NCBI GenBank assembly: GCA_002777825.1
Contig: MEIR01000089.1
Span: 25,562-89,561 of the forward strand
DNA: 64,000 nucleotides
Direction of reading: 5' to 3'
Source of the DNA: Snodgrassella alvi
GTDB lineage: Bacteria > Pseudomonadota > Gammaproteobacteria > Burkholderiales > Neisseriaceae
Of the stretch, positions 18,327 through 31,163 are shown piece by piece. How positions within the stretch are numbered: the first letter of the stretch is position 1; every line of letters begins with the position of its first letter. The position numbers and the translations under genes were made by a program. Below the pieces are notes generated by a model that saw only the letters and a program-made list of their open reading frames with translations, was not told the DNA's origin and ran no database searches.

Positions 18327-20726
<2,400 letters not shown>

Positions 20727-20745
20727 AAAATCACCTGCTCACACC

Positions 20746-20775
20746 AAAAAGGATGGCACAGCCATCCTTTTTTGT
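20746..20775 (+). terminator. gyrB intrinsic terminator (AAAAAGGATGG-CACAG-CCATCCTTTTTT)
   Basis: perfect 11-bp stem + T-run directly after gyrB stop. Confidence 0.8.
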
Positions 20776-20894
20776 TCATTATAAGAGCGCTCGCTATAAT
20801 TAAGGTATAGGTTTATCCATCAGAAAATAAAGAAAACTAAATCATATGGTGATTTTATTGTTACATTCAGGCCAAGATTTGTACGGGTACTAAA

Positions 20895-21185
20895 ATGAAA
20901 AAAATTAATATGGTTATATACCCAATAATTTATATGATAGGACTTTTAATATTATTGTGTACTTCTGATAATAAATATGAGTGGATGCAGGAGATAGATA
21001 ATACGATAGTTCAATTGCCAGAAGATAGCTCTGCAAATACGGCGATTGGAATGACTATTTTAACTTTAATATTAGTTATTATGCAGATAGTGCGTTTCAA
21101 ATTTGCCAGAAGCCATCTTGAGAAAAGCACTGTACTTATACTGGCATTGCTTGCAATCATTGTATGGGCGATTAAATTTAGTTAA
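20895..21185 (+). CDS. Hypothetical small membrane protein at the left edge of the R-M island
   Basis: 96 aa, 3 predicted TM; very AT-rich. Confidence 0.3.
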   Translation: MKKINMVIYPIIYMIGLLILLCTSDNKYEWMQEIDNTIVQLPEDSSANTAIGMTILTLILVIMQIVRFKFARSHLEKSTVLILALLAIIVWAIKFS

Positions 21186-22023
21186 TAATTAATTTTATTT
21201 TATTTAAATTTTTTATACTAAATCTTACTTTAAGATTAAGATAGATAGTTCTGCTTGAAAACTTTTTCAACAAACAGCTTACTGCACTGGCACAGATTAA
21301 TCTACTACACAGCTATTACTACTCAAAAAGTGACGCCAATTCTTATCATAAAATACCAATACTTATTTTCATAAAGCGATTATAAAAAAATTATCGGCAC
21401 TTATTAAGTAAAGTGCTATCGAACAATCGATTTTATGCATGACGGTTATCAAAATCTATGGCGCTTTAAATCATTAAATATAATAAATAAGTATCATCGT
21501 AAAATATTAGGCATTGGCATCTGTCAGATGCCCCGTAAGTAGAATAACTTCGTTATCAGAACAAGCTAGATAAATATGCTGGCTACCAGTAAACAGACAG
21601 ATAAATAATGAATCAAAACCTACCGGAATAACGGTCATCAACTGGAAAAATTATATGGATATCCACAAACTATATTCAATCCAATAGCATATCCAAACCG
21701 GTATATTGCATAATCGTCTCTATCCAACAAAACTACTGAATTGATATCTTTTTAATAATCTGGTACCGGCAAGAAAAATAAGCGAAGAATGACTAATGCT
21801 TTATAACACTGTCCGCCCATCATACATTAAATAATATTAATCCAATCAAATATAAGACATTGAAACAGATAGCGTAATTTTCTGCGGGCGTTTTAACTGA
21901 GGATGGAATACTGACCATTCAATTGCCGATTGTATGCAAGCATACTAAGCACGCCTGAATTAATCAGTTTTAATCAGGAAGCGGAAACGTTAATTCCCAT
22001 TTCCTCTTCCTGATAGTTCGCAA

Positions 22024-25000
22024 TTAAATTTCGCCACCTATGCCTTTAAACTTCTCCACTAGCTCAACAATTTTCTGGTATACCTTTTGTTTTTTGGGCA
22101 AATATTGCGGATTAAGCGGGCTCATTTTGGGCAAGACTTCGTTCAGTTCCGTGCCGTTGTCAGTAGCATATTCACGCCTTAATGAGGATGCAATATAACG
22201 TTTAGCAGCAGCTTCATTTAAATTTTCATCACCAATTAATGTCTTAACCTCAGCCTGTTGCTGCTGTTGGGCATACTGGTAAAAGGCATCAATCATACTG
22301 GCTTTATCAGCAATAGTATTTAAATCGGTATGTTGAATAAATTCAATAACCAATTCCTCTTTGGCACGATAGCCTAAACTGGAGCGGATTAAGCGCTGTG
22401 CATCTTCAACAATGACTTGTTTATTCTTATCTTGCTTGTTCTGCTCAAAAATTAACTCCAGAATATAATCCAAATTGATTTCTTGCGATTTTAATAAATC
22501 CACCTCAAAAACCACATCATCCCAATCTATGGTTAGCTGCTCCTGTTCTTCAGCGGCTTTTTGTCTATACAGCCAGTCACGAATATCATGGTAAGTTGAG
22601 CGGTAATTCTGGATCGCTCTTTCTGTTGGTATCTTAATCTTTTGCAACCGTTCAAAAGCTTCATCTGAAACATAATACTGCGCTTTAAACTGTTCGACTG
22701 CTTGTTTATCTGTAGTATCCAGCTGTTGCAATGTCTTTAAAGCGATATATTCATCATAATTTTGCAATGCATTATCGGCACGTAAATACTGGCCAAATAA
22801 TTTAATAAACGCTTTTTTATCTTTTTCAGTAATAATCTGATCCGGATGAGGAAAACATTGCTGTAGCTCAGCCACAATAGCTAAATATCCGCTATGGATT
22901 TCACCGGAAATCTCATCGGTGTAACCCTGCATATGTTCCTCATAACTTTTTTCTAATACCACATCCTGAGTATTTCTTTGGCCAAATAGTTTGATGGCGG
23001 CAATAGTAGCTGGTTCTAAATCACGAAATGCCACAATATTACCAAACGCTTTAGTGTCATCGTAGATGCGATTGGTGCGTGAAAAGGCTTGGATTAAGCC
23101 ATGAAAACGTAAGTTTTTATCGACAAATAGCGTATTGAGGGTTGGCGCATCAAAGCCGGTTAGAAACATACCCACCACGATTAATAAATCAATTTCCTGC
23201 TTTTTAACGCGCAAAGATAAATCACGGTAATAATTCTGAAATTGCCCGCTGCTAACATCATAGTTGGATCTGAACATTTGATTATAATCATCAATCGCAG
23301 AAGCTAAAAATTCTTTCGCACTTTGATTCAACGCATTGGTTTCAAAGCTTTCATCAGCAATACCGCCTGCAGGGTCTTGTTGCTCATTAGCAGCAAAGGA
23401 AAAGATAGTAGCAATTTTCAATGGTTTACTGGATGATTGTTGCAGCTTTTTTAACGACTCATAATACAGCTTTGCCGCGTCCACACTGCTCACGGCAAAC
23501 ATAGCATTGAATCCTGTACCGTTACCATTTAAGCGGTGTGTTTTCTGGTTAAATTTGTTCAGAATATATTGGCTGATTTGCTCAATTCGTTTCGGATGCA
23601 GTAATGCTTGCTTATTTTCAGCGGCACTGAGTTTCTCCAGATTTTGCTCACATTCAATCGCTTTAAAATGCGGGCGTACATCATTGTAGTCGACTTTAAA
23701 TTTAAGTACTTTTTCATCGCGAATAGCGTCGGTAATTAAATAGCTATGCAACTCACGCCCGAATACCTTGGCAGTAGTTTGCTCGCCAAACGCATTAGCG
23801 TCCAGAATTGGCGTGCCGGTGAAACCAAATTGATAGTATTTTTTAAACTTTTTCTTAATATTTTTTTGTGCTTCGCCAAATTGTGAGCGATGTGCTTCAT
23901 CAAAAATAAACACGACCTGTTTATTATAGATCGCTAAATCATCCTTAGCTTTTATCAGATTATTGAGTTTTTGAATGGTGGTGACAATAATCTTATTATC
24001 CTGTTTTTCAATATTGCGCTCCAGTCCGGCAGTACTATCGGAACCATTGACACTGTCTTTTGAGAATTTCTGATATTCTTTCATGGTTTGATAATCCAGA
24101 TCCTTACGATCCACCACAAAAAACACTTTATCAATAAATTCCAGCTCGGTGGCCAGACGCGCTGCTTTAAAGCTGGTGAGAGTTTTTCCTGAGCCGGTGG
24201 TGTGCCAGATAAAGCCGCCACTATGTAAGCTACTCCAGTTTTTGGCCTGATAAGCACTGATAATCTGCCATAAAATCCGTTCGGTTGCCGCAATCTGGTA
24301 AGGGCGCATAATCAATAAAGTATCATTGATATCCAGAACGGAGTAAGTGATTAAAACACTTAACAGCACACGGCTGGCAAAAAAAGTGGCGGTAAAATCT
24401 TTTAAGTCTTTAATTGGTTCGTTTTCAACATTCGCCCAGTTTATGGTGAAATCAAAACTGGCCTTATCCCGTTTGGTGGTATTGGCAAAATACCGGGTAT
24501 CGGTACCGTTTGAAATCACAAATAACTGTAGATATTTAAACAGGGAATTGTCCTGATTAAAACTCTCTTTACTGTAGCGATGAACTTGACCAAACGCTTC
24601 ACGAATGGCAAGGCCACGTTTTTTAAGCTCCACATGTACTAAAGGCAGGCCATTAACTAAGATGGTAACATCGTAGCGATTAGCATAATTACCGGTTTGC
24701 TGAAACTGGCGAATCACCTGTAATTTATTGTTGCTGAGGTTTTTTTTATCGAGCAGATAAATATTCTGAATATGCCCATCATCAAACACAAAATCGTAGA
24801 TATGATTATGGTGAATTTTACGGCTTTTATCGACCATCGATTCATTCGGTTTATCCAGATACTCTAATACAAATCGCTGCCATTCCTCATCGCTAAACTG
24901 CATATTATTGAGCGTTTGCAACTGCACCCGAATATTGGCCAACAATTTCTGCTGATTATTCAGCTCAGGCAGATATTCATATCCTTGACGGCATAAATCC

Positions 25001-25125
25001 TGAATCAATTCGTTTTCTAATTCATTTTCCGTTTGATACGCTGCCGCCGGCTCTTCAAGCTTGGTGTAGTTATCTAAAATAATATAGTGATCAGTTTCGG
25101 CAATCGGGGTTGTGTAATTGACCAT
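22024..25125 (-). CDS. hsdR: Type I restriction enzyme R subunit (HsdR)
   Basis: 1033 aa; SF2 helicase motifs incl. Walker A TGSGKT and DEAH box ([10 protein letters not shown]); operon with hsdM/hsdS. Confidence 0.9.
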
Positions 25126-25128
25126 CGT

Positions 25129-26271
25129 CTATTCCTCCTCCTTCTCGTAAAAATTGTAATTTTCGAGTAAATGATTCAGTAAAAAGGCAACTATCTTTTT
25201 TTCAGGTTCGGAAGGCTCGGGCACCATTTCATTGGATAAGGTTGAATGACTGGTAAAATTGATTATGCGGGTTAAATATACTTCTCTATCATCAGGCAAC
25301 AAGTCTGACCAATGCCGATAGCCTAAAAAACAGGCGGTTTTTTCATACAAGTTACGTAATAGGGTAAAATGATATTTTTCAATTTTATTTTCCTCAATCG
25401 CTTGTTGCAGCAACTGCTTTAAATACAGATGATAGGAAAAACTGTGGTTTGAATCGCCTTTTTTGCCCTCTAATTCAAAATAGCCATCTGCCAATCGTCT
25501 TAGAATATAACCGTTTTTTAATCCTAACTCATTATAAAGTACATTATAAAACAGTGGATTATGGGTAGTGATGATAAATTTAATGTCAGATTCATTGGAT
25601 TTGATTAATTGGGCAATATCTACTGCCAATTGAATCAAATGATTCTCATCTAATGAGCTTACCGGATCATCAATAAAAATATAGCGTAATTGGTCAAATT
25701 CATTAGTAGAACGCTCGCTTTTTTCCGCAATATTGCGCTCGGCAATCACCAAACTAATCAAGGTGAAAAAAATACTCCAAATTAAGTTATTTTCTTCCCC
25801 CTTGGAGATTTTAATATTAGCAATACGCTGATCATTACCCGCTGCGAGCGAAAAAGTAACAGCGGAAAAATCCTCATTGAAATGCGGCGTCAGGTTTTGC
25901 TGAGTATACGATTGGAAGTAACGAGCAATATTTTGCTCCTGCCCTTGCTCTTTCAGAATCCAGTCCGTAAATGAATTGGGTTGTATGCTTAGCTGATGCT
26001 CACCTTGCTGATATTGATCGTTATTCCAGACAAATAAATCCTCGGTAAATGCGTTATAGTAAAGAATTTTATGCCGTGTTAAGGCTCCACTGTTTTCTTT
26101 ATCCGCTTTATCCTGCGATACAATAAACTCTTTAAACGCTTGCGATAAACGTGTTTTACCGGTGCCATTAAAAGCATAAATCAATTGGGCTTTGTTTCCC
26201 TTTTTCCCTTTTTGGGTGCTTTGGGCGTTTCTATCAATCTGCTCAGCAATATTTATCAGTGTATTATTCAT
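25129..26271 (-). CDS. ABC/Rad50-like P-loop ATPase embedded in the Type I R-M operon; PrrC/RloC-like anticodon-nuclease candidate
   Basis: Walker A AFNGTGKTRLS near N-terminus, Walker B + D-loop IFIDDPVSSLDENH, H-loop TTHN; occupies the prrC position between hsdS and hsdR. Confidence 0.5.
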   Translation of the reverse strand: MNNTLINIAEQIDRNAQSTQKGKKGNKAQLIYAFNGTGKTRLSQAFKEFIVSQDKADKENSGALTRHKILYYNAFTEDLFVWNNDQYQQGEHQLSIQPNSFTDWILKEQGQEQNIARYFQSYTQQNLTPHFNEDFSAVTFSLAAGNDQRIANIKISKGEENNLIWSIFFTLISLVIAERNIAEKSERSTNEFDQLRYIFIDDPVSSLDENHLIQLAVDIAQLIKSNESDIKFIITTHNPLFYNVLYNELGLKNGYILRRLADGYFELEGKKGDSNHSFSYHLYLKQLLQQAIEENKIEKYHFTLLRNLYEKTACFLGYRHWSDLLPDDREVYLTRIINFTSHSTLSNEMVPEPSEPEKKIVAFLLNHLLENYNFYEKEEE

Positions 26272-26288
26272 ATTCTGATTGTCTTGTG

Positions 26289-27533
26289 TTATTTATCTTC
26301 TACCTTAGGAAAGTTCAATAATAAATTACGATAGTACTCGTACTGTTTTTGGCGTAATTCAATCTCACGCGGTAAACCCTCGGTGATTGAATTAGTGAGT
26401 ACATCGAATTTATCTAGGATTTTGACAATACGGTCTTGTTCCTCGAGGGAGGGGATGGGCAAGCGATATTTAAGAATAGCTTCTTTATTTCCACGTGGCA
26501 TTTTTGCGCCTTTAGAATGTTGCATATTGTATTCAAAAAAATTATCATTTGCTAAGATATGATATAAATATCTGTAGGTTAACAGATTATTTTTTAGACG
26601 AATGACTAAAACATCACCATTAGTGCCTCCAGAAGAATCTGCCTGCCAAATTTTTTTTAAGTACGGACGAATATTTCCAATTAAAATATCATTGGTGAGA
26701 TATTCTGTAAAACTTCCTTCTTTAGGCACGTGATTTGAATCAGTTTTTCCTGCTCGGTTTTGTAATAAATTATCAACACCTACATAATTTTTTTCATTAA
26801 GTTTATCAAAGCTGATTCGAGTATTTGAATAATTAGCTACTTCGCCTAAAGCCTTCCACTCAACCTCATCCTCTTTAAAGGTCAACAATTGATCACGATA
26901 ATAGTTGTATTGTTTTTTCCGTGCTGTAAGCTCTGCTGTAAGCTCTGCTGTAAGCTCTGCTGTAAGCTCTGTAAATATGTCTAAGATACGGGTAATTTCA
27001 GTCTGTATGTGTAGCGGAGGAATAGGAATTTGAATTTTTTTTAATTCACTCATTGGTAAACTAATAACTGGCGAACCAACAATTTTTTTACTATATTCAT
27101 TTACTATATATTTTGAATTAAATAAATGAGATAAGTATTTTGAAACAACTATTTCTTGAACAGGTTTTATTACATAGACTCCTTCTTTGATATTCCAATT
27201 TTTAGGTTTTTCATCAATAACAGCTGTTTTTCCTACCGTCCCTGTCCCCGAAAATAAGATGTCGCCAGCCTCTAAATTCGAGCGGTTGTTTATAAGCTCT
27301 AAAGCTTGGTTATTAATTTTATCAGTCTTATCAAGGAATACTATCTTTCCATTCTGAATTTCTCGAACAGTTATATAGAAATTCATAGCATCGGATGTAT
27401 TCAACTTAAAGTTATTTCGTGGATTTAGCCCCGTTTTCAAAGATTTTATTACTTCCCCTAATGGTTTCCACTCAACCGCTACCCCATCAAGTAATTTAGC
27501 GATACTATTGTGCATATTTAAATTGTTACTCAT
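26289..27533 (-). CDS. hsdS: Type I R-M specificity subunit (HsdS) with two target-recognition domains and a TAEL-repeat central conserved region
   Basis: 414 aa; duplicated TRD architecture; central ...ELTAELTAELTAELTA...; conserved C-terminal YEYYRNLLL-type motif. Confidence 0.85.
   Translation of the reverse strand: MSNNLNMHNSIAKLLDGVAVEWKPLGEVIKSLKTGLNPRNNFKLNTSDAMNFYITVREIQNGKIVFLDKTDKINNQALELINNRSNLEAGDILFSGTGTVGKTAVIDEKPKNWNIKEGVYVIKPVQEIVVSKYLSHLFNSKYIVNEYSKKIVGSPVISLPMSELKKIQIPIPPLHIQTEITRILDIFTELTAELTAELTAELTARKKQYNYYRDQLLTFKEDEVEWKALGEVANYSNTRISFDKLNEKNYVGVDNLLQNRAGKTDSNHVPKEGSFTEYLTNDILIGNIRPYLKKIWQADSSGGTNGDVLVIRLKNNLLTYRYLYHILANDNFFEYNMQHSKGAKMPRGNKEAILKYRLPIPSLEEQDRIVKILDKFDVLTNSITEGLPREIELRQKQYEYYRNLLLNFPKVEDK
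26923..26970 (-). repeat. Perfect 4x 12-bp tandem repeat (GCTGTAAGCTCT) encoding TAEL repeats in the HsdS central spacer
   Basis: four identical in-frame 12-mers read directly from sequence. Confidence 0.95.
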
Positions 27534-27733
27534 TTCTTGCGACTTTCCTGTTTCGCTTTGTTCGCTAATGCATTGATGGTTTCCAGATAAGATATTTCTA
27601 CCCCACTAGAAATATTTCGTGAACTATGTTGTTGAACTGTTCGGATTTTCCGAACAGTTGCTTTTTTAAAGTAAGCATCAACACGAACTTTTTGATTATT
27701 AACATGATAAATTTGAATGTGATTATTGCTCAT
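27530..27733 (-). CDS. Small hypothetical protein translationally coupled between hsdM and hsdS
   Basis: 67 aa; start overlaps hsdM stop and stop overlaps hsdS start (ATGA-type overlaps); basic C-terminus. Confidence 0.4.
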
Positions 27734-29274
27734 GCTTCAATCTCCGCCACAATTGCATCAATTTGGGCGCGTAAGCTATCAATTTTAGCTACAGTGTCTT
27801 TTAATTCAGCATTAAGCTGGGTGATATCAATAATTTCGCGGGTATCTTCGGCTTCCACATATGAGCTCACCGATAAATTATAGTCATTGTCGGCAATGGT
27901 TTGATTAGCAACCGATTTGGCAAAATATTCGACGTCTTGCTTGCTGGCAAATACTTGCACAATTTCTTCAATATGCTTATCAGTTAGGACATTATTATTG
28001 GTTTCTTTTTTAAACAGTTTGCTGGCATCAATAAATTGCGTGGTTCTGACGGTTTTGTTTTTCGCCAGCACCAAAATATTAACCGCAATCGAGGTACCAT
28101 AAAATAAGTTTGGTGCCAGTGATATCACGGTTTCAACAAAATTATTATCGATTAAATATTTACGAATTTTTTGTTCGGCGCCACCACGATAAAAAATACC
28201 CGGAAAGGTAACAATCGCCGCCCGCCCTCGCTCAGACAAGTAACTTAATGAATGCAGAATAAAGGCAAAATCGGCTTTTGATTTTGGCGCAAGTATGCCA
28301 GCGGGGGCATATCGTTCATCATTGATTAAGGTTGGGTTATCACTGCCAATCCATTTAATTGAATAAGGGGGATTGGAAACAATGGCATCAAATGGCTTTT
28401 CGTTGCCAAATTTAGGATTAAGTAGTGTATCCCCCAAGACAATTTCAAATTTATCGTAGTTGATGTTGTGTAAAAACATATTCATACGGGCAAGATTATA
28501 GGTGGTATGGTTAATTTCCTGACCATAGAATCCGTCCTCAATGATATGCTTATCAAACTGTTTTTTTGCCTGTAATAATAAAGAGCCTGAGCCTGCCGCT
28601 GGGTCATAGATTTTATTGATCTTTGTTTGATTATGTAAGGCTAATTGTGCGATTAATTTGGATACATTCGGCGGAGTGAAAAATTCTCCTCCTGATTTAC
28701 CGGCTTTAGAAGCATAATTAGAGATTAAATATTCATAAGCATCACCAAACACATCAATATGGTTATCTTCAAATTGCCCAAAATCCAGCTCGGCAATGCC
28801 ATTAAGTACGGCGGCTAGCCGTTTGTTTTTATCGGCTACGGTATTGCCTAAGCGGTTGCTGGTGGTGTCAAAATCGGCAAATAACCCTTTAATATCGCTT
28901 TCGGAAGGATAGCCGATAGCTGAACTTTCAATCGCATTAAAAATATTGGCCAAGTGGGTATTTAAGTCTTTATTGGTATTGGCCTCGGCAACGGTATGGC
29001 AGAATAATTGACTTGGATAGATAAAATAGCCTTTGGATTTAATGGCATCCTGTTTGATTTCGTCGGTGATAGCATCATCGGGAATTGATTTATAATCAAT
29101 ACTCTCGTCGCCTGCTTGCATATAATCAGCAAAGTTTTCACTAATAAAGCGATAAAATAAGGTGCCAAGTACATATTGTTTGAAATCCCAGCCATCAACC
29201 GCGCCTCTTACTTCGTCGGCAATTTTCCATATTTGGCGTTGTAATTGGTCTCGTTGCTGGATACTGATGGCCAT
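27730..29274 (-). CDS. hsdM: Type I R-M N6-adenine DNA methyltransferase subunit (HsdM)
   Basis: 514 aa; N-terminal HsdM_N domain, AdoMet motif [10 protein letters not shown] and catalytic NPPY ([11 protein letters not shown]). Confidence 0.9.
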
Positions 29275-29721
29275 GATTAAATTCCAATAAAAATCTGTGT
29301 GTTAAATATTAGGCTTATTGTGATATTTAAGCGGTAATTGTGTATTTTATCAGTATGGCTGCTTATTGGTGCATCAGGGTACAAAATAATATACGCCACA
29401 AGGCAATAATTGTATTATGGGTTCTTCGATATCAAGGTTCTAGCCTGCATTCTATGTATATTGCTTTTATAAGTGGCGATTCATTCTGGCCGCAGATTCT
29501 GTAACAGCTCAGCACATTGCATTTTGCCTGTGCCGATTGAGCATGATTGATTTTCTGGTGTTTGCTGTATTGCTCAGTCATCAATTATTTAATGTTGGTA
29601 GCAGTTGCGAAGGAGGCATCATTACAAGTACTTTATTTTCTTCCATAGCACTTTTTGCAGTAATAAGTTGCATTGAATTTGGTATTTAACCGACTAAGGC
29701 AGAGAAAATCGAAGTGGTCAT

Positions 29722-29821
29722 GGCTGCGGATAATGGCGTTGTTACCCTGATGGGTGATGCAGTAGAAGCACAGCGGGCACTGATTGAATACGATGCCTTA
29801 AATGCGCAGGTAGATGTTTGA
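29722..29821 (+). pseudogene. Orphan diverged copy of the gyrB 3' end (last ~32 codons: KIEVVMAADNGVVTLMGDAVEAQRALIEYDALNAQVDV*)
   Basis: ~75-80% identical to 20623-20726 ([34 protein letters not shown]); no upstream gyrB body. Confidence 0.75.
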
Positions 29822-29837
29822 ATCACTTTATTACATC

Positions 29838-29866
29838 AAAAAAGATGGCATAGCCATCCTTTTTCA
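29838..29866 (+). terminator. Diverged copy of gyrB terminator (AAAAAAGATGGCATAGCCATCCTTTTT)
   Basis: same hairpin as 20746-20775 with 2 substitutions; right-end direct repeat of the island. Confidence 0.7.
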
Positions 29867-29936
29867 TTGTCATGATTATATTCAGTAGCCAATCTGAGCT
29901 GGCTAAATATCTGATACAGTAAAACCAGCTAAATCA

Positions 29937-31163
29937 TCAGCCTTTAACACAGATAACCTGACGTAACTGATGTCTGATTTCTACCAGTTCCTGCTGTGCC
30001 TGCATTACGGCATCGATATCTTTGTACGCCATGGGAATTTCGTCGATTACTTCTGTATCCTTACGACACTCTACATGGGCGGTAGCCTGCATCTGATCGG
30101 CAACGGTGAATCTCCTTTTGGCTTCGGCGCGGCTCATTACCCGCCCTGCACCATGCGAACAGGAATGAAAACTCTCGGTGTTTCCTAAACCGCGCACGAT
30201 ATAACTTTTTGCGCCCATTGAGCCCGGTATAATTCCCAGTTCGCCCTCGCGTGCAGAAACGGCACCTTTACGGGTAACAAAAACATTGTGGCCAAAATGC
30301 CGCTCTTTTTGTACATAGTTATGATGACAGTTTATTGTTTGCAGATGCGTGGTAAACGGCACATCAATCACTTGGCGTAATGCAGCAATGGTGTTGTGCA
30401 TCATTACTTCACGGTTTACGCGGGCAAAATCCTGCGCCCAATGCACAGCTTCCAGATAATCACGACAATATTCGGTGCCTTCGGCAAAATACGCCAGATC
30501 GTTATTGGGCAGGTAGGTATCAATAAAATACTTTTTCATTTCTTTTTGTGCCAGTTCACTGAAATATTTACCAATGGCATGGCCAATACCACGGGAACCA
30601 CTATGCAGCATAATCCATACCTGATCGGTTTCATCCAGACAAACTTCAATAAAATGATTACCGCTGCCAAGTGTTCCCAGATGATGCAAGCTATTGGCTT
30701 TTAAAAAGCGCGGATATTTGCTGGTGAGTTTTTCAAATCCTGGCAATAGCTGCTGCCAGTACTCTTGTACAATCGGCGGCGGATTATGCCAGCTACCTTT
30801 ATCATATTTTTTATTACCCGGAGTAGAACCATGCGGTACTGCCTTTTCAATCGCCAGCCGCAATGGCATCAGGTCTTCCGGCAAATCCTGCGCGGTAAGT
30901 GATAACTGCACCGCCATCATGCCACAGCCGATATCTACGCCAACCGCAGCAGGTATAACTGCACCAGTAGTAGGAATCACGCTACCTATGGTAGAGCCTC
31001 GTCCCAGATGCACATCCGGCATTACAGCAATATGCTTAAAAATAAAGGGCAGTTCTGCGGTTTGCAGCAATTGTGTTTTGGCGATATCTTCTACTGGTAC
31101 GCCTTTAGTCCACATTTTTACCGGACGGGTTTTATCTTCTTTTAATACTTCATATTCTTGCAT
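29937..31163 (-). CDS. rtcB: RNA-splicing ligase RtcB (3'-phosphate/5'-OH RNA ligase)
   Basis: 408 aa; conserved RtcB metal/GTP-binding motifs (HxGxG region SGNHF, CHHNY, GAGR). Confidence 0.9.
   Translation of the reverse strand: MQEYEVLKEDKTRPVKMWTKGVPVEDIAKTQLLQTAELPFIFKHIAVMPDVHLGRGSTIGSVIPTTGAVIPAAVGVDIGCGMMAVQLSLTAQDLPEDLMPLRLAIEKAVPHGSTPGNKKYDKGSWHNPPPIVQEYWQQLLPGFEKLTSKYPRFLKANSLHHLGTLGSGNHFIEVCLDETDQVWIMLHSGSRGIGHAIGKYFSELAQKEMKKYFIDTYLPNNDLAYFAEGTEYCRDYLEAVHWAQDFARVNREVMMHNTIAALRQVIDVPFTTHLQTINCHHNYVQKERHFGHNVFVTRKGAVSAREGELGIIPGSMGAKSYIVRGLGNTESFHSCSHGAGRVMSRAEAKRRFTVADQMQATAHVECRKDTEVIDEIPMAYKDIDAVMQAQQELVEIRHQLRQVICVKG

Follow-up and report, generated by a model that had tools for sequence, protein, structure and literature searches.

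The idea of a variable repeat has been established for type IC restriction-modification enzymes since 1989, membership in this family having originally been decided by genetic complementation or antibody cross-reaction with the type IC prototypes. Tetra-amino-acid repeats (TAEL, LEAT, SEAL or TSEL) in the central conserved region are a hallmark of the family (PMC10030836). A 12-bp sequence is present twice in EcoR124I, which recognizes GAA N6 RTCG, and three times in EcoR124II, which recognizes GAA N7 RTCG; EcoDXXI and EcoprrI also have three TAEL units, and three is the apparent optimum (Loenen 2013, PMC3874165). The number of TAEL units is known to change by unequal crossing-over (PMC3874165). 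Repeats of 12 nt, located likewise in the central conserved region and likewise variable in number between strains, encode LEAT in NgoAV of Neisseria gonorrhoeae and LEAE in XfaII of Xylella; methylomes for NgoAV revealed a difference of 1 bp in the gap for every LEAT unit (PMC6789123), and the number of LEAE repeats varies from strain to strain (bioRxiv 10.1101/2022.09.01.506293). Both of these systems differ from the locus described here in the tetrapeptide itself, and the specificity of NgoAV depends additionally on a poly-G frameshift. Lastly, EcoprrI belongs to the prr locus of E. coli CT196 (prrA-hsdM, prrB-hsdS, prrC, prrD-hsdR), a type IC system with an embedded PrrC (PMC3874165).

The DNA analyzed here, referred to as the window, is a 64-kb (64,000-nucleotide) stretch from Snodgrassella, a bee-gut member of the Neisseriaceae, and it contains an island of the following genes, in the order of their transcription:

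27730 to 29274, minus strand: hsdM, 514 aa, the N6-adenine methyltransferase subunit (Pfam N6_Mtase, E=4e-119, and HsdM_N; PADLOC MTase_I).
27530 to 27733, minus strand: an ORF of 67 aa, overlapping the stop of hsdM and the start of hsdS (translation).
26289 to 27533, minus strand: hsdS, 414 aa, a type IC-like specificity subunit (7bst_A, Pfam Methylase_S, PADLOC Specificity_I).
25129 to 26271, minus strand: a prrC-like anticodon nuclease gene, 380 aa, between hsdS and hsdR (PADLOC PrrC, Pfam AAA_13).
22024 to 25125, minus strand: hsdR, 1033 aa, an EcoR124-type restriction/translocase subunit (Pfam EcoR124_C, T1R_D3-like, SWI2_SNF2 and HSDR_N; PADLOC REase_I).

The PrrC match is strong, covering residues 4-379 of the 380 aa (E=2e-141, 469 bits in PADLOC). 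HsdR matched PF12008 EcoR124_C with E=5e-64 and PADLOC REase_I with 1399 bits. Judged by its gene content and order, the island of hsdM, hsdS, prrC and hsdR is a prr-type locus with the architecture of E. coli prr, and since a prrC homologue sits between hsdS and hsdR, it would constitute a prr-type hybrid of abortive infection and restriction-modification in Snodgrassella. In prr-type systems, cleavage of the tRNA-Lys anticodon is masked by the restriction-modification complex and unleashed upon phage infection. The 67-aa ORF gave a weak PADLOC match to PDC-S05 and no Pfam family, and may resemble an N-terminal fragment of the RhuM type; among the related loci it was called in L001, L205, L208, L216, L217, L220 and L240, and was absent from L206, L207, L214, L215, L218 and L219. 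Compared with EcoprrI, which has the same gene order and three TAEL (PMC3874165), the window differs in its Snodgrassella host, its target-recognition domains (TRDs) and the extra 67-aa ORF between hsdM and hsdS; its PrrC is a putative nuclease. An 'anticodon nuclease' also follows immediately after hsdS in an allele on an E. coli IncY plasmid (L233).

The identity of the specificity gene was supported by several independent matches. Residues 11-412 of the protein align with the solved HsdS of EcoR124I (PDB 7bst_A, E=5e-53), so the two are homologous over the full length in fold and domain order, and their HsdR partners share the EcoR124_C domain. Pfam Methylase_S was matched in two stretches, and PADLOC Specificity_I with E=4e-105. 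The parts of the protein are arranged as TRD1, the central conserved helix (ILDIF-17 aa-RKKQYNYY), TRD2 and the C-terminal conserved helix, and the motif pair ILDxF...RxKQYxYY correspondingly occurs twice in the translation. The second occurrence frames the counterpart of the central linker:

26355 to 26405, minus strand: the C-terminal conserved-helix counterpart, the 17 residues DVLTNSITEGLPREIEL between ILDKF and RQKQYEYY (translation).

As the central linker and the C-terminal segment are both 17 residues long, the two conserved helices are symmetric. Wherever the motif pair could be located among the best 120 homologues, the C-terminal segment is likewise 17 aa, and the same length was seen in each Snodgrassella allele that could be read there. 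[quoted passage not shown] The initial annotation, which had called the gene a type IC-like hsdS and had placed the repeat in its central conserved region, was therefore correct on both counts. No second or silent hsdS copy or fragment, of the kind used in shufflon-type switching, was found in the 64-kb window. The exact HsdS protein is recorded only on the JGI contig Ga0643323_000010, and by these comparisons the allele is an uncharacterised specificity, with new TRDs, in a classic type IC system.

The repeat itself lies wholly within the reading frame of the 414-aa HsdS:

26922 to 26971, minus strand: a perfect tandem repeat that encodes ELTA x4 in the 17-residue linker (Tandem Repeats Finder, sequence, translation, tract measurement).

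Tandem Repeats Finder reported a period-12 array of 4.2 copies with 100% matches and no indels, and direct measurement gave a perfect tract of 50 nt, which on the coding (minus) strand holds the 12-nt unit GAGCTTACAGCA 4.17 times. By direct reading, the plus strand is (GCTGTAAGCTCT)x4 and the coding strand CA(GAGCTTACAGCA)x4, and the earlier description of a perfect 12-bp repeat is thus accurate for the DNA. It is the sole perfect short-period tract of such size in the 64-kb window, and the number of perfect tracts this long expected by chance in 64 kb of the window's base composition is only about 1.6e-16 (38 consecutive lag matches, summed over lags 4-100). At the protein level, the linker TELTAELTAELTAELTA comprises HsdS residues 188-204 (nt 26922-26972), in the context TRILDIF-TELTAELTAELTAELTA-RKKQYNYYRDQLL or, in short form, ILDIF-TELTAELTAELTAELTA-RKKQY. 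The residues read F-T-ELTA-ELTA-ELTA-ELTA-R, i.e., a T followed by ELTA x4, which in the TAEL register becomes TEL-TAEL-TAEL-TAEL-TA: three complete TAEL units, preceded by a TEL without the A and followed by TA. The translation given in the initial annotation (TAELTAELTAELTAEL) is not encoded, and its count of four TAEL was an artefact of the register, as only three complete units are present in the protein.

For comparison with the classical enzymes, alleles from plasmids were chosen by their match to the solved EcoR124 chain, and every tract and linker was measured in the same way. The allele chosen as EcoR124I-type (L230) was 100% identical to 7bst_A over a 203-aa query comprising TRD1 and the central region; no EcoR124I-identical protein was present among the best 120 homologues. 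The measurements were as follows:

L230 (EcoR124I-type): linker TALTAELTAELNM, 13 residues; perfect period-12 tract of 28 nt, 2.33 copies.
L231 and L232 (EcoR124II-type): linker TALTAELTAELTAELNM, 17 residues; perfect period-12 tract of 40 nt, 3.33 copies.
Window: linker TELTAELTAELTAELTA, 17 residues; perfect period-12 tract of 50 nt, 4.17 copies.

EcoR124I thus differs from the window in having a 13-residue linker, two TAEL and an N6 gap, the window having one TAEL more, and in the HMMER alignment to 7bst_A the window indeed has one insertion, of 4 residues. EcoR124II, the enzyme of E. coli plasmid R124/3 (also EcoR124/3), is like the window in architecture and in its 17-residue TAEL linker (TALTAELTAELTAELNM versus TELTAELTAELTAELTA), and its C-terminal conserved helix is equal in length and nearly identical in sequence. 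Its linker ends, however, are TAL and NM, where the window has TEL and TA, and this difference accounts for the extra DNA copy, because the flanking codons (the E of TEL, and the TA that replaces the NM of EcoR124) continue the periodicity. In other words, the perfect tract is 50 nt rather than 40 nt long, but the additional 10 nt of periodicity add no residues, and the protein is not lengthened. Both TRDs of EcoR124II are unrelated to those of the window, and the half-sites are therefore predicted to differ.

Linker lengths in the family are quantised. Among the best 120 homologues, linkers of 5, 9, 13 and 17 residues were found in 1, 7, 87 and 20 proteins, respectively, and none had 21 residues, the length between ILDxF and RKKQY that defines a four-TAEL class; the window has 17. 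The initial annotation had rightly tied the N6 or N7 spacer of EcoR124I/II to the number of TAEL copies (PMC3874165), but its proposals that four copies exceed those of the classical enzymes and that a longer spacer is to be expected did not survive the measurement, as the 17 residues equal those of the EcoR124II-type alleles L231 and L232, and the helix is as long as the three-TAEL helices of EcoR124II, EcoDXXI and EcoprrI. The closest full-length relatives among the best 120 form a cluster of E. coli and Moellerella HsdS proteins of 415 aa (P0001-P0010) that are 72-73% identical to the window across both TRDs and may for this reason read the same or similar half-sites; they differ in having a 13-residue linker, FTGLTAELTAELTM, and a plain hsdM-hsdS-hsdR operon without prrC. 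One of the E. coli proteins is encoded in assembly GCA_022761245.1.

The occurrence of the repeat beyond these relatives was explored by scanning metagenomes for two exact units of GAGCTTACAGCA, which returned at least 120 loci; the window's own lineage was not among the matches listed. All listed matches occupy one equivalent position within an hsdS-type reading frame. Among them, two exact units were found in at least 52 loci, three in at least 46, four in at least 20, and seven and eight in at least one each, while linkers of 13 residues occurred in at least 63 loci, 17 residues in at least 51, and 33 and 37 residues in at least one each. Every complete four-unit tract among the matches listed encodes F-TELTAELTAELTAELTA-R. 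By this survey, the 17-residue linker of the window is one of two standard states. Natural hsdS genes with 7 to 9 units of the 12-nt repeat, and with 33- and 37-residue linkers, were also encountered (L008, at 392-500, and L087). The contigs that contain the exact unit number at least 120 (L002-L121); their habitats include human gut, bioreactor and fermentation, and their TRDs are only about 30-50% identical in amino acids to those of the window. The presence of GAGCTTACAGCA across such distant hosts suggests conservation at the DNA level, or spread, of a central 'constant module'.

Copy number was found to vary between alleles that are otherwise the same. In the metagenomes, L089 and L119 are 100% identical over 373 aa with linkers of 13 and 17 residues; L056, a 2-TAEL allele, and L087 are 99.4% identical outside the repeat with linkers of 13 and 33 residues; and unit number differs in L005/L041 (96% identical outside the repeat) and in L018/L088 and L074/L083 (nearly identical outside it). 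Among the protein homologues, complete identity outside the linker was seen in E. coli P0015/P0016 (3 versus 2 TAEL), in P0024/P0030 and the metagenome-derived P0036/P0039 (2 versus 1 TAEL in each pair), and in the Bacillus mycoides trio P0049/P0059/P0075 (3, 2 and 1 TAEL). Near-identical alleles outside Snodgrassella thus differ by 1 to 5 units, with counts of 1, 2, 3 and 7 at 96-100% identity or more. These pairs, together with the Snodgrassella alleles described below, bear out the view that TAEL number varies across natural alleles, a known property of the family.

In the window itself, the GyrB encoded at 18336-20726 is matched with 100% identity by proteins of Snodgrassella alvi. Near-identical GyrB sequences were therefore used as anchors, and the region downstream of gyrB was read in other Snodgrassella assemblies, most of which had the island in the order gyrB, hsdR, prrC, hsdS, hsdM, rtcB. 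Comparison with the hsdS alleles of these related strains, which the initial annotation had advocated, revealed four DNA units and a 17-residue linker in 13 of 16 alleles (the window, L205, L206, L214, L215, L216, L218, L219, L220, L226, L240, L241 and the frameshifted L242), and three units and a 13-residue linker in 3 of 16 (L207, L208 and L217). Repeat copy number therefore does differ between related alleles at the same site, although none of the 16 had more than four units; as a tally of alleles, the 17-residue state is strongly favored in Snodgrassella.

The TRDs of these alleles are reassorted extensively. TRD1 of the window is found again in L208, L216 and L217 (99-100% identity), joined to two other types of TRD2, and in L240-L242 (93-100% DNA identity across TRD1), joined to a further TRD2; TRD2 of the window recurs in L205 with 94% identity. 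Of these alleles, L217 comes from assembly GCA_002777745.1 and L240 from GCA_002777525.1. The N-terminal TRD1 of L205 corresponds to the C-terminal TRD2 of L206, L215 and L216 (about 95% identity), and since one and the same TRD is thus seen at either end, TRDs are exchanged not only among alleles but also between the two positions. In the 16 alleles, linker length varies independently of the TRDs, and no pair among them combines the same two TRDs with different unit numbers. Over nt 1-540, the hsdS genes of the window and L217 match with 100% identity; their unit numbers then differ, identity is 87-93% over nt 613-690, and from there on the sequences are unrelated. The crossover joint thus coincides with the tract. 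The units themselves show concerted evolution: in L205 each of the four is GAGCTCACAGCA, with the synonymous change CTT>CTC, and in L216 three are GAGCTTACAGTA, where GCA>GTA replaces A by V (TVEL). In combination, these patterns favor unequal crossing-over or slippage as the process acting on the repeat.

The content of the interval between gyrB and rtcB (about 20726-29937 in the window), which lies within a few kb of dnaA-dnaN, varies among Snodgrassella strains. In most strains it is the hsd/prrC island; other loci examined (L209, L224, L234, L225 and L228) carry alternatives, which are two unannotated ORFs of 581 and 567 aa in some strains, and a HATPase_c_3 protein with RadC and an AAA_15 ATPase in others. 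Within the island, prrC is split in L218 and hsdS is frameshifted in L242. In a literature search on Snodgrassella combined with methylome or type I restriction, Snodgrassella was unmentioned in the 12 top-ranked results.

Two alternative readings of the copy number itself were considered. The helix might carry four TAEL, one beyond any classical type IC enzyme, and specify an unusually long gap of N8 or more, as the 4.2 DNA copies of Tandem Repeats Finder would indicate when set against the 'two' and 'three' of the literature for EcoR124I/II. That comparison, however, mixes two registers: counted as DNA, the EcoR124I- and EcoR124II-type alleles have 2.33 and 3.33 copies, and counted in residues they have 13 and 17, the window having 17. 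With only three complete TAEL in the protein, one insertion of 4 residues when aligned to 7bst_A, a two-TAEL chain, and a 17-residue linker invariably encoded by the four-unit tract in at least 20 unrelated metagenome alleles, a four-TAEL helix is highly improbable here. An engineered four-TAEL variant of EcoDXXI is said to be promiscuous. Collapse or expansion of the repeat during assembly could also be suspected, as the sequence comes from a metagenome-type assembly (JGI 3300076093), but the 50-nt tract is shorter than typical reads, and the four-unit tract recurs in sister strains that were assembled independently (NCBI, ENA, JGI and Logan); because these assemblies agree on the count, such an artefact is very unlikely.

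More is to be said for a phasevarion-like role of the tract as a rapid contingency switch within populations, in which slippage would continually generate subpopulations with three, four and five units and differing methylation specificities. The perfect tract is longer than that of the EcoR124II type (50 versus 40 nt), its units evolve in concert (L205 and L216), Snodgrassella strains differ by three versus four units, identical or near-identical alleles of other bacteria differ by 1-5, and expansions to 7-9 exist (L087 and L008). Similar ideas have been discussed for simple sequence repeats (SSRs) beside TAEL tracts (PMC7383803) and for the LEAE repeats of Xylella (bioRxiv 10.1101/2022.09.01.506293). 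Against rapid switching, 13 of the 16 Snodgrassella alleles, with many TRD pairs, have the same unit number and none exceeds four, which looks more like selection for the 17-residue state than free drift. Slippage of a 12-nt unit is, moreover, expected to be far rarer than that of SSRs of 1-5 nt, and since changes in unit number never shift the frame, ON/OFF switching would not result. A fast switch within populations is on balance unlikely. A broader proposal is that the prr-type hsd island beside gyrB is a strain-diversifying specificity locus, in which TRD exchange and TAEL gain or loss occur at one 50-nt tract kept homogeneous by concerted evolution, with N6/N7 switching frequent enough to create heterogeneity. 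We regard it as conceivable but doubtful; if true, such switching would lead to heterogeneity in methylome and phage resistance inside a single bee-gut population.

The reading that we favor is the classical one, namely that the tract very probably encodes the TAEL ruler of the central helix, with three TAEL-equivalents, in the class of EcoR124II, EcoDXXI and EcoprrI. The central conserved helix is expected to pair in antiparallel orientation with the C-terminal conserved helix, and would act as a molecular ruler, setting how far apart the two TRDs lie and how they are twisted relative to each other. The ruler is here 17 residues, or three TAEL-equivalents, matching the 17-residue C-terminal partner, and the constancy of this partner fits the remark that three TAEL are optimal. 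The class predicts 8 nt between the methylated adenines (N7 for half-sites of 3 and 4 bp), and this remains a class prediction, since gap length also depends on the half-site lengths of the uncharacterised TRDs; relative to sister alleles with the same TRDs and a 13-residue linker, the gap is predicted to be 1 bp longer. The tract coincides with the joint where TRD modules are swapped, its units presumably being gained and lost by unequal crossing-over or slippage. The enzyme is presumably active, with a recognition sequence that is predicted at the level of its spacing class.

Overall, the mechanism is already well described and of textbook standing, and what is new, by comparison of sequences, is the allele itself. 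Its repeat is functionally meaningful but of ordinary TAEL spacer length, and the allele opens no new mechanistic question. The chief value of the analysis is a correction: the DNA copy count of a tandem-repeat finder overstates TAEL number by about one relative to the count used in the literature, and a spacer prediction based on it would have been wrong. In Snodgrassella, a single chromosomal site holds, from strain to strain, numerous TRD combinations and linkers of two lengths, accompanied by PrrC, and these comparative data may help the engineering of bee-gut bacteria and studies of the barriers to phage and horizontal gene transfer between strains.
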